A stretch of DNA of 64,000 bases from Chitinophagales bacterium (lineage in GTDB: Bacteria; Bacteroidota; Bacteroidia; Chitinophagales; UBA10324): contig JANWWJ010000031.1 of NCBI GenBank assembly GCA_025056305.1, forward strand, positions 66,861 to 130,860, in the 5' to 3' direction. Each line of letters opens with the position of its first letter. The stretch's first letter is position 1. Below are positions 32,698 to 53,817 of this stretch, piece by piece. Position numbers and translations under genes: made by a program. Under the pieces are notes generated by a model. That model was not told where the DNA came from. It saw nothing but the letters and a program-made list of their open reading frames with translations, and did no database searches.

Positions 32698-32709
32698 GAC
32701 AAAAAAATT

Positions 32710-32808
32710 AGGGCAAGTGACTTTTATCGCACCGCTACAACCGCCTACCCTTGCTGCCTTCCGACCCTGGGGGTGTTCAGCAGGAGCTGGTCGTAAAAGG
32801 CTTGCCCT
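32710..32808 (-). ncRNA. ffs: Signal recognition particle RNA (small, 4.5S-type)
   Basis: The minus-strand transcript contains CAGGGUC-GGAA-GGCAGCAAGGGUAG. This matches the conserved SRP domain IV (GGAA tetraloop closed by GUC/GGC, with the AGCA symmetric-loop motif), as in E. coli CAGGUCCGGAAGGAAGCAGCCAAGGCAG. The terminal helix AGGGCAAG/CUUGCCCU encloses about 99 nt and is followed by a U7 run. The ends are approximate. Confidence 0.8.
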
Positions 32809-32921
32809 GTTGCAAATGTAAAAGGTGCATGCATTTGACCCATGAGATTTTTCGAAAAATAGTTTTGAACAAATCCTTGGGTATTTTTCTTCGAAAAAGA
32901 CATGAAAGAAATAAAGAGGCT

Positions 32922-37618: not shown

Positions 37619-38230
37619 CTAATAGCCCAACAACTTACGCAAAAACTCTTCCATGAAGGCTGGCCGCAACATTGCCGTGAAGGCCAAACCAAACACGGCT
37701 CCGGTAAAGTGGGCGCTGTGGTTGATGTTGTCACCCCCGCGATAGCTCATGATGTGCGAATACGCCAAATACAGCACCCCCCAAACGATGGCAGGCATAG
37801 GCAGCATACCCATGAGAAATATGGTGTTGCGCGGGTCGATCAGCACAAAAGCAAACGTTACGGCCGACACCGCCCCTGAGGCACCCAAACTGGCGTACCA
37901 GCTCACGTGCCGGTAACGGAAATACGTGGGCAGGTCGCTCACAACTATGCCAGCGACATATAGCAAAATAAACAATGCCGTGCCCCAGGGATCAAAATAC
38001 AACTGGTAGTAACGGAGCACCACCGTTCCGAATGAATAAAGCACTAACATGTTAATGAGCAGATGCGGCCAGTTGGCATGAATCAAGCCAGAGGTGATAA
38101 AGCGCCACCATTCACCATGGTGGGCTATGGCATAAGGCCTCATGGCCATGCGTTCCAACAACAAAGGCTGTCGAAACCCCGAATAGGAAAACAACACGGT
38201 TATCAGGATAATGATCAGAACTACGGACAT
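37619..38230 (-). CDS. Rhomboid family intramembrane serine protease
   Basis: WRFITSGLIHANWPHLLINM, the catalytic GASGAV, and a distal H in HFTGAVFG, with 6 TM helices. Confidence 0.85.
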   Translation of the reverse strand: MSVVLIIILITVLFSYSGFRQPLLLERMAMRPYAIAHHGEWWRFITSGLIHANWPHLLINMLVLYSFGTVVLRYYQLYFDPWGTALFILLYVAGIVVSDLPTYFRYRHVSWYASLGASGAVSAVTFAFVLIDPRNTIFLMGMLPMPAIVWGVLYLAYSHIMSYRGGDNINHSAHFTGAVFGLAFTAMLRPAFMEEFLRKLLGY

Positions 38231-38313
38231 GAGCAGGGCGCCAAAGTATGCTAAAGAACCCGCACTTTAAGCCCCCCGGGGGAAGTGGGCTGATCAACAA
38301 TAATAGTGCCAAC

Positions 38314-38334
38314 AAAATAGCGAGATTTCGCTAT
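38314..38334. repeat. 21-nt repeat copy 1 (AAAATAGCGAGATTTCGCTAT) containing an 18-nt hairpin palindrome
   Basis: Read directly. ATAGCGA-GATT-TCGCTAT is a 7-bp-stem palindrome, and there is an identical 21-mer at 38720-38740. Confidence 0.85.
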
Positions 38335-38336
38335 TG

Positions 38337-38679
38337 GCATACCATACACGGCTATATTCTTTTGTATCCGCCATGATACCCAAATATGATGAAGCACAAC
38401 GATGGCAGCTCAAAGCTGTCCGTCGGTTTATATGGAGGCTTCAGGCGCTTCGGGGTCATGGGTATGCTATATACTTCAGGTTTGTGCCGGCGGAAAGACG
38501 GACGTGTGGAATATCAACTCATGGGGTGAGGCGAGGGCTAAATATCAATCCCAGCAGGCACCACATGTCTGGTTCCGCCGGCCCTGAAGGCTAAGCAGCG
38601 CAAGGGAAAAACAAACGAAACAACCCTATCGTATCCTAAGGCTGCCCGAATAAAAGGGCAGTTTATTTTTCTTTTTTTT
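38337..38679 (+). ncRNA. Candidate unclassified structured RNA (boundaries uncertain)
   Basis: Long-range complementary segments: GCATACC 38337-43 with GGTATGC 38461-67; GCCGGCGGAA 38486-95 with TTCCGCCGGC 38573-82; AGAC 38496-99 with GTCT 38567-70; GTGTGG 38504-09 with CCACAT 38561-66. The region ends in a strong terminator and has no convincing ORF. No known RNA family recognised. Confidence 0.3.
38642..38679 (+). terminator. Intrinsic terminator (plus strand) with no protein gene upstream
   Basis: CTGCCC-GAATAAAA-GGGCAG followed by TTTATTTTTCTTTTTTTT. Confidence 0.65.
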
Positions 38680-38719
38680 ATTCAATAAAAATTCATTTGT
38701 CTGCAAAATTCATACCGAA

Positions 38720-38740
38720 AAAATAGCGAGATTTCGCTAT
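38720..38740. repeat. 21-nt repeat copy 2 (AAAATAGCGAGATTTCGCTAT)
   Basis: Perfect match to 38314-38334, 406 bp downstream. Confidence 0.85.
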
Positions 38741-39071
38741 GGTGCCGCTGTGCTGCCTCTTGTTTTTTTACGGGTACTATGATGCTCTGTGGCACAGCAA
38801 GAGCCCCAATGAGCAATTAATGCTGCCATGAATCATTGTGTTCTGTTGTGCTGCTGTGCACGTAGTTATAAAGTATGGATCAGGAAATGTAGGTGAAAGG
38901 CAACCCAGGCGACGAGAAGAGGCGCTGTGCATACGCCCCTGATGTTGCCCATCTTTTTGGTGTTGCCTTTCACTTTTCCTGATGTAAGGAATTGGGGTTA
39001 CACCGCTTCCGCAGGCCTTCACGACCATTATAAAATGGCCAGATTACTTCTGTTATTATGAAAAGTTGTGC

Positions 39072-39500
39072 TCAATGTTCCAGATGATATGGATGACCAT
39101 GCATGATGGTAAAAGCACGGTACAATTGTTCAGCCAATACGACACGTGCCAGATGATGCGGCAGGGTCATGGGTGATAACGATAGCTTCCAATGGGCCTG
39201 TTGCAGCAAACGATCATCTATCCCATCGGGACCACCGATGACAAAAACCAAGTTTCGCCCCTCATTTATGCGTTGCTGTAGCCATTGAGCCAACTGATCG
39301 GAACTCATGCTCACGCCTCGCACGTCCAGGGCAACCACGACATCAGAACGGTTCAGCCAAGCTTGCTTTCCCGACTTCTTTTCCGCTAAAACACGGCTTT
39401 CTATGTTACAATACTTCCGTAGCCGCAACACATAGCGATTGTACAATTCCGTTGCCTGTGGATCTTTGGTTGTGGAAAGCAACACGATGCTGATCAACAT
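39072..39500 (-). CDS. rlmH: 23S rRNA (pseudouridine1915-N3)-methyltransferase RlmH
   Basis: SPOUT family. FVIGGPDG and C-terminal LSLSPMTLPHHLARVVLAEQLYRAFTIMHGHPYH match the RlmH pattern. Confidence 0.85.
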   Translation of the reverse strand: MLISIVLLSTTKDPQATELYNRYVLRLRKYCNIESRVLAEKKSGKQAWLNRSDVVVALDVRGVSMSSDQLAQWLQQRINEGRNLVFVIGGPDGIDDRLLQQAHWKLSLSPMTLPHHLARVVLAEQLYRAFTIMHGHPYHLEH

Positions 39501-53741: not shown

Positions 53742-53743
53742 TG

Positions 53744-53817
53744 TGATCCCGTCAGGATTCAAACCTGAAACCTTCTGATCCGTAGTCAGATGCTCTATTC
53801 AGTTGAGCTACGGGATC
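53744..53817 (-). tRNA. tRNA-Arg (anticodon ACG)
   Basis: Manual cloverleaf of the reverse complement: acceptor GAUCCCG/CGGGAUC, D arm GCUC-AACUGAAUA-GAGC, anticodon arm UCUGA-CUACGGA-UCAGA (anticodon ACG), variable AGGUU, T arm UCAGG-UUUGAAU-CCUGA, discriminator A. 74 nt, CCA not encoded. Confidence 0.9.

Follow-up and report, generated by a model that had tools for sequence, protein, structure and literature searches.

A palindromic repeat best described as the putative upstream promoter element of two tandem structured-RNA genes in an uncultured Chitinophagales lineage

What is the role of two identical, palindrome-bearing repeats that lie a few hundred base pairs apart in a noncoding spacer of an uncultured Chitinophagales bacterium? 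The initial annotation of the 64-kb window (the whole stretch of DNA analyzed here) had described them as bracketing a segment and had offered three readings: an operator present twice, the ends of a mobile or recombination cassette, or hairpins for RNA processing. We found the two copies of AAAATAGCGAGATTTCGCTAT where they had been reported, at 38314-38334 (copy 1) and 38720-38740 (copy 2), 406 bp apart from start to start and with 385 bp between them. The claim that the repeat is unique in the window held as well, with no third match even when 3 mismatches were allowed; the number of matches expected was 0 (100 shuffles), and a relaxed pattern, TAGCGA-N2-6-TCGCTA, retrieved the same two sites only. 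The core, ATAGCGA-GATT-TCGCTAT, is indeed a perfect 7-bp inverted repeat around GATT (termed 7-4-7), and its arms reach 8 bp each in several of the copies described below. Copy 1, read on the plus strand, consists of an AAAA tract followed by the palindrome, and copy 2 is identical to it on the same strand. The similarity extends to the left, giving a 37-nt direct repeat (38298-38334, plus strand) that is 81% identical to 38704-38740 and that includes a conserved T.CC.A.AAAA leader 5' of the palindrome.

The source of the window was recognized as an uncultured Chitinophagales bacterium through a protein match of 100% in an NCBI MAG. The repeats sit in an 840-bp spacer between a gene for a rhomboid-family protease (37619-38230) and rlmH, encoding a SPOUT methyltransferase (39072-39500), both on the minus strand. 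Copy 1 is located 84 to 104 nt upstream of the rhomboid start codon, between the divergent rhomboid gene and the first of two RNA units, and copy 2 heads the second RNA unit, with which rlmH is convergent. In relatives whose rhomboid protein is 57 to 62% identical to that of the window, rlmH and the rhomboid gene are adjacent, 19 to 140 bp apart, and neither the palindrome nor the RNA is present. The clade with a long spacer comprises the window, L014/L015 (rhomboid 84% identical; 984-bp spacer), G3 (a Logan-assembled genome made up of contigs L016 to L018 and L066; rhomboid 80% identical), and L019 (rhomboid 69% identical; 436-bp spacer). A long spacer in this small clade only, and a short one in distant relatives, makes the region a clade-specific insertion into an old rhomboid/rlmH gene pair. 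The carriers of the locus in the databases are these four metagenomic lineages only, and all the statistics given here come from few sequences.

Seven instances of the palindrome are available from three related genomes and the window. The layout of L014/L015 is collinear with that of the window, with both palindromes at the same places and in the same orientation, and G3 (L016/L018 and L066) has the palindrome on the rhomboid side as well as on the rlmH side. L019 contains a single palindrome and a single unit, which corresponds to the second unit of the window and has TTGACAACGG in common with the second unit of L014, within an otherwise variable spacer. The presence of the bracketed unit, which the initial annotation had proposed to check in related strains, therefore varies among relatives, L019 having a counterpart of the second unit only.

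The surroundings of the insertion showed several other features. RlmH is 54 to 58% identical in the two closest genomes, compared to 80 to 84% for the rhomboid protein encoded 840 bp away, so that rates are strikingly unequal across the insertion. L014/L015 carry an extra gene for a 260-aa protein with no Pfam match (L014:7573-8355) between an aquaporin gene and rlmH, which is absent from the window. Between copy 1 and the rhomboid start codon, 83 nt apart, there is a run of G and C, CCCCCCGGGGG (38266-38277), which is itself palindromic. The rhomboid gene may have its -7 box in a conserved ACTTTGGC, which the window, L014, and G3 all carry about 12 to 20 nt upstream of the rhomboid ATG.

We then looked for the palindrome beyond the locus. 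Neither the window nor the flanks of the relatives (about 40 kb) contained a further site. The exact 18-mer core, with the loop GATT of the window (relatives carry GAAA), gave 13 singletons in unrelated taxa among 185,579 species genomes, about the number expected by chance (roughly 17). One of these, in a Saprospiraceae MAG (L003:5270-5310), has the identical core inside a longer palindrome that is followed by TTTTTTTG; it looks like a chance occurrence in an ordinary terminator of an unrelated Bacteroidota genome. A scan of viral contigs with a degenerate loop yielded 3 matches in unrelated contexts, two in which a longer palindrome, with a T-rich run behind it, contains the core (L067/L068) and one with the core only (L069). 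BLAST of the whole spacer against plasmids and phages returned no match.

Evaluation of the seven instances revealed a common layout in all of them: a T.CCAAAAAA leader, the palindrome, a variable stretch, a TATATT-N-TTTTG box, and the motif ACTATG. The distance from the end of the palindrome to the last G of the TTTTG box is exactly 30 nt in 7/7 instances, and that from the box to ACTATG is 8 nt (4 nt in L019). The window contains 10 perfect 7-4-7 palindromes, none of the others having this layout. Copy 1 heads one unit of this kind and copy 2 heads another; the arrangement is therefore a tandem duplication and not a pair of cassette ends. The 385-bp segment that had been seen as bracketed is unit 1 of this duplication, and copy 2 heads a paralogous unit 2 that extends toward rlmH.

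The sequence that follows each palindrome resembles a promoter. Bacteroidetes promoters have a -33 element, TTG or TTTG, and a -7 box ending in TTTG (PMC7366714). The last T of the palindrome begins a TTG in 6/7 instances, including copy 1, in which it is the first base of the -33-like TTG at 38334-38336; copy 2 is followed by GG, not TG. In unit 1 of the window, the -7-like box is TATATTCTTTTG (38353-38364, plus strand), whose final G lies at the 30-nt distance, and the same 12-mer is present in unit 1 of L014 and unit 2 of G3. A TTG, a 20-nt spacer, and a box ending in TTTG fit the Bacteroidetes -33/-7 geometry (PMC7366714), and the -7 box of the units has a T at the position where the consensus has an A. 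As internal references for promoter geometry, we used two noncoding RNA genes located on the minus strand of the window, each preceded by a canonical TAnnTTTG box: that of a small SRP RNA of the Bacteroidales type (32707-32814; 100 bits), with TACATTTG upstream, and that of tRNA-Arg(ACG) (53743-53817), with a TTTG, 19 nt, and the box TAATTTTG. A sigma-54 or sigma-70-type reading of the TTGGCA/TTGACA found after the palindrome was rejected by inspection on the basis of spacing. Each repeat is thus best described as a conserved element that would lie upstream of the putative promoter of one of two tandem, diverged structured-RNA genes.

The initial annotation had placed a putative structured RNA and its terminator between the copies. 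Both are present, in that the segment between the copies folds strongly as RNA (z = -5.4) and contains a plus-strand terminator; the idea of bracketing is misleading. The core of RNA unit 1 (38370-38590, plus strand, 221 nt) scored 116 bits with a covariance model that had this unit in its training set. It consists of a 5' hairpin domain closed by a helix termed P0 (38371-38461) and a long 3' hairpin domain (38463-38590) that carries CAUGGGGUGAGGC, of about 90 and 125 nt, respectively, with a conserved single-stranded linker, UAUGCUAUAUAC, between the two. An intrinsic terminator follows at 38639-38680 (plus strand) and is composed of GGCTGCCC-loop-GGGCAG (hairpin at 38639-38664) and a T-run, about 40 nt beyond which copy 2 is found. 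L014 has a hairpin of another sequence and a T-run in the same place. RNA unit 2 (core at 38776-38985, plus strand, 210 nt) is strongly diverged and likewise composed of two hairpins; ACTATG lies at its 5' end, and it contains a perfect 12-bp helix (38893-38904/38962-38973).

The core is 210 to 225 nt long in six of the six units, and in 5/6 of them folding favors the plus over the minus strand, with a tie in L014 unit 2 (-78.5 versus -78.3 kcal/mol). Compensatory changes were found at 12 of the 28 consensus pairs of the four best members. ACTATG opens the 5'-end helix P0, which is part of the minimum-energy fold of 5/6 units and covaries, being CTATG/CATAG in most units and CCATGA/TCATGG in unit 1 of the window. 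By eye, a plus-strand terminator hairpin followed by a T-run could be recognized after 4/6 full-length units (window unit 1, both L014 units, and G3 unit 2), and the sequence of these hairpins is completely different from unit to unit. Unit 2 of the window ends in a weak, imperfect hairpin only, and inspection of the L019 unit by eye found no plus-strand terminator.

A search of the spacer with 4227 Rfam models (including 6S, 6S-Flavo, Bacteroidales-1, Flavo-1, HEARO, and RAGATH) gave no match above the gathering threshold, and at E values up to 10 only noise was obtained for the window, L014, and L019, the best scores being 13 to 20 bits compared to gathering scores of 33 to 100. R1, a covariance model built to find more copies, recovered only its four training sequences, and neither window unit 2, at 4.6 bits, nor L019, at 7 bits, reached significance. 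The homology of these two units to the family is suggested by their position, by the identity of their promoter regions, and by an architecture in common with the other units. When metagenomes were scanned with TCATGGGGTRAGGCNNGGGC, a conserved block of the RNA, 39 matches were obtained, all without the flanking helices and hence attributed to chance. The folds and comparisons of the units show that the RNA, a previously undescribed one, is real and encoded on the plus strand.

Unit 2 of the window looks degenerate, with TTG changed to TGG, the G of the -7 box gone, and the conserved apical motif absent; its counterpart in L014 is a strong family member. The palindrome of copy 2 is perfect despite the degenerate-looking promoter and RNA of its unit. 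Either copy 2 has a role that is independent of unit 2, for example as a terminator or through a joint action of both copies on unit 1, or its identity has been kept by conversion.

To what extent is the palindrome itself conserved? In the set made up of the window, L014, and G3 (six copies; L019 was left out), the arms had a mean pairwise identity of 0.97 and ACTATG one of 0.88; the values for the A-tract and the -7 box were 0.76 and 0.77, and the two intervening spacers had identities of 0.27 and 0.23, which is the random level. The palindrome feature, an island of conservation, is real and under selection. Since the terminator hairpins of the same units drift in sequence, structure alone does not fix sequence here, and the palindrome arms are nevertheless constant. 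The invariance of the arms, together with the fixed 30-nt phase, therefore indicates a sequence-specific promoter element acting at the DNA level. We propose, at about an even chance, that the palindrome is the operator or activator site of a dimeric DNA-binding protein, centered near -44.5 and touching the TTG of the -33 element. Of the three readings offered initially, that of an operator present twice fits best, with invariant arms amid randomized DNA and a spacing that never varies.

Two observations on the palindrome sequence bear on this proposal. In L019 this position is occupied by ATAACTA-AAAT-TAGTTAT, a symmetric variant that fits a dimer site coevolving with its protein and fits a conserved hairpin equally well. 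The 4-nt center is GATT in both copies of the window and GAAA in all four copies of L014 and G3. Dimers usually do not read the 4-nt center of their site, and a center that is the same within a genome but different between genomes needs gene conversion or another constraint, which counts against an operator. No regulator gene is encoded within 10 kb of the locus, and since no further site exists in the window or in the flanks of the relatives, no regulon is visible there. These points count against an operator, as do the T in the -7 box, the perfect palindrome of copy 2 in front of a unit that looks degenerate, and the likeness of the palindrome to a minus-strand terminator, with T-runs in 6/7 instances.

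According to the model that we favor, the plus strand of the spacer would carry a tandem pair of paralogous genes for structured RNAs of about 300 nt, each with its own 21-nt upstream promoter element. Each unit would be read in the order A-tract, 7-4-7 palindrome, TTG (-33), 20-nt variable spacer, TTnTTTTG (-7), and a transcription start near ACTATG, and the RNA in the order 5' hairpin domain, single-stranded linker, long 3' hairpin domain, and terminator. The palindrome, about 44.5 bp upstream of the inferred start, would bind a dimeric activator or repressor that touches the -33 element, and both RNA genes, possibly with the divergent rhomboid gene, would come under one control.

The alternative that survives best, although we regard it as unlikely, is that the palindromes are intrinsic terminators of the minus strand, at which antisense read-through from rlmH would stop, at copy 2 and then at copy 1, so that the RNA genes and the rhomboid promoter would be insulated from it. 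Read on the minus strand, the palindrome does resemble an intrinsic terminator, a short hairpin (ATAGCGA-AATC-TCGCTAT) followed by TTTTTTCGG in copy 2 and by TTTTGTTGG in copy 1, with a stem energy of about -8 kcal/mol and a T-run on this strand in 6/7 instances. A simple terminator scan flagged copy 2, and no obvious minus-strand terminator was seen between the rlmH stop codon and copy 2, which lies 330 nt past that stop with nothing coding between. The chance matches in L003 and L067/L068, where the same core is part of longer palindromes with T-rich runs as in ordinary terminators, also favor this possibility, and the compensatory arm changes of L019 fit a structural constraint. However, a terminator needs neither invariant arms, which here are 97% identical while the identified terminator hairpins of the same units all differ, nor a constant distance of 30 nt to a promoter box on the plus strand. 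With 3 G-C pairs of 7 and A-U pairs adjoining the U-tract, the stem is weak and A-U-closed, and in L019 it reaches only -4.2 kcal/mol, with TGAC between stem and T-run. Copy 1 was not flagged by the scan and follows no minus-strand gene, and a terminator reached only 330 nt past rlmH, beyond the antisense of an RNA gene, would leave that gene unprotected. The functions of operator and of minus-strand terminator are not mutually exclusive.

There is a small chance that the units are instead leaderless genes for small basic proteins of about 57 to 76 aa, in which case the palindrome would be the operator of a protein-coding gene. A conserved ATG is found 8 nt past the -7 box, and the frames open from there in 5/6 units have 73, 73, 76, 66, and 57 codons. 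When compared to shuffles, four of these frames were longer than expected (P = 0.03, 0.10, 0.016, and 0.035), and the L019 frame was annotated by a gene caller. Yet the reading frame of the conserved nucleotide blocks changes from genome to genome, the two G3 units differ mostly by nonsynonymous changes and at first codon positions, and the frame in unit 2 of the window has only 13 codons. Compared as proteins, unit 1 of the window and unit 1 of L014 are 33% identical, against 84% for the neighboring rhomboid. The open frames had no Pfam match, a search of 5.8 billion proteins found only the ORF of L019 itself, and the conserved ATG is accounted for by helix P0. The coding hypothesis, whether the frames are taken from the palindrome or from the conserved ATG, was thus rejected for its inconsistent frames and its lack of homologues, and we treat the open frames (38373-38594 in the window and those in the units of L014, L019, and L066) as an unexplained coincidence.

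The chances are slimmer that the palindromes serve a site-specific recombinase as crossover sites, or form the end hairpins of an IS200/IS605-like element, the 406-bp unit being excisable, amplifiable, or mobile. They repeat, in direct orientation, a dyad-symmetric site whose asymmetric center is matched within a genome and differs between genomes, as in recombination sites that need matched overlap regions, and the copy number varies: L019 has a single unit, the more distant relatives have none, and the other genomes have two. In G3, the palindrome is the exact endpoint of three Logan contigs (L016:1-20, L017:1-20, and L066:6912-6932), which implies that the repeat has at least the k-mer length of the assembler; from these breaks, at least 31 identical nt around the palindrome were deduced for the G3 units. 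Downstream of the palindrome, these two units share about 85% identity, which suggests gene conversion between them. Against such a mobile or recombining unit stand arms of 7 to 8 bp, short for known recombinase core sites, and the absence of recombinase, transposase, or integrase genes within 10 kb of the locus in L014, which has the gene order of the window. The cassette reading of the initial annotation finds no support either in additional copies, of which the window and the flanks of the relatives had none, or in similarity to plasmids, phages, or viral contigs. Moreover, the two-unit state has been kept in the same orientation since the split of the window and L014 while the interior diverged to saturation, unlike what is seen in a recent mobile element, and an ordinary tandem duplication with short gene conversion explains the same facts. 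We found nothing of an inverton, as the orientation is the same in the window and L014/L015, the asymmetric centers are direct, and no recombinase is nearby. A more specific form, to which we give even less credence, has crossover sites whose 4- to 6-nt center must match and a recombinase encoded elsewhere, so that the RNA would be an excisable or amplifiable cassette; if true, this would represent a recombination-driven copy number switch for a noncoding RNA.

The weakest explanation, that the palindromes are RNA hairpins in a long plus-strand precursor covering both units and act as processing or stability signals at the mature 5' ends, appears very improbable: the plus-strand hairpin is stable (-8 to -8.7 kcal/mol), the GAAA loop of L014 and G3 fits the GNRA tetraloop pattern, and the arm changes in L019 are compensatory, but the palindromes, upstream of the inferred transcription start, precede both a properly spaced TTG/TTTTG pair and P0, the closing 5'-end helix of the RNA, a strong terminator ends unit 1 before copy 2, no promoter-like motif was recognized by eye upstream of copy 1 in the 83 nt that separate it from the divergent rhomboid start codon, and the GATT loop of the window is not GNRA.

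We therefore return to the palindrome as a site for a dimeric protein and compare it to known systems. Dimeric helix-turn-helix proteins, Crp/Fnr or Rex-like, use 7-4-7 sites either as class II-type activators or as repressors that overlap the -35 element. The present site resembles these in being an 18-bp dyad (7-4-7) placed about 44.5 bp upstream of the putative start, abutting the -33 element in a fixed phase; we know of no operator consensus that resembles the half-site ATAGCGA. In Pseudomonas, PrrF1 and PrrF2 are tandem paralogous sRNA genes, each with its own Fur box. The likeness lies in two adjacent, duplicated RNA genes on the same strand, each with the same palindromic promoter element, which implies coregulation. 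In contrast to PrrF1/PrrF2, the palindrome described here is unrelated to the Fur box, the RNAs, of about 300 nt and with two large hairpin domains, are far longer and have diverged from each other much further, and the promoter would belong to the Bacteroidetes -33/-7 class.

REP/BIME elements, IS200/IS605-derived palindrome-associated elements (PATEs), invertons, and integron attC sites likewise involve short palindromic repeats on either side of a few hundred base pairs. Unlike these, the repeats showed no multicopy distribution in the window or the relatives' flanks, have no transposase or recombinase gene within 10 kb in L014, and are found in one orientation in all genomes; they are direct copies of one site and not a left-end/right-end pair, and they occupy a fixed place around a diverged interior. 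Rfam families also include structured noncoding RNAs of Bacteroidota, but neither unit was matched by any of them in three genomes.

Duplicated sRNA genes with one common operator are an architecture already familiar from other bacteria, and the significance of the present case is local, the family occurring in four metagenomic lineages only. If our reading is right, the insertion would be a compact regulatory module in a poorly studied, uncultured lineage of Chitinophagales, made up of an undescribed two-domain RNA of about 300 nt in tandem and of an 18-bp operator-like site phase-locked to a Bacteroidetes-type promoter. The site would then offer a handle for finding the regulator, and the single-stranded linker of the RNA would offer one for finding its targets.
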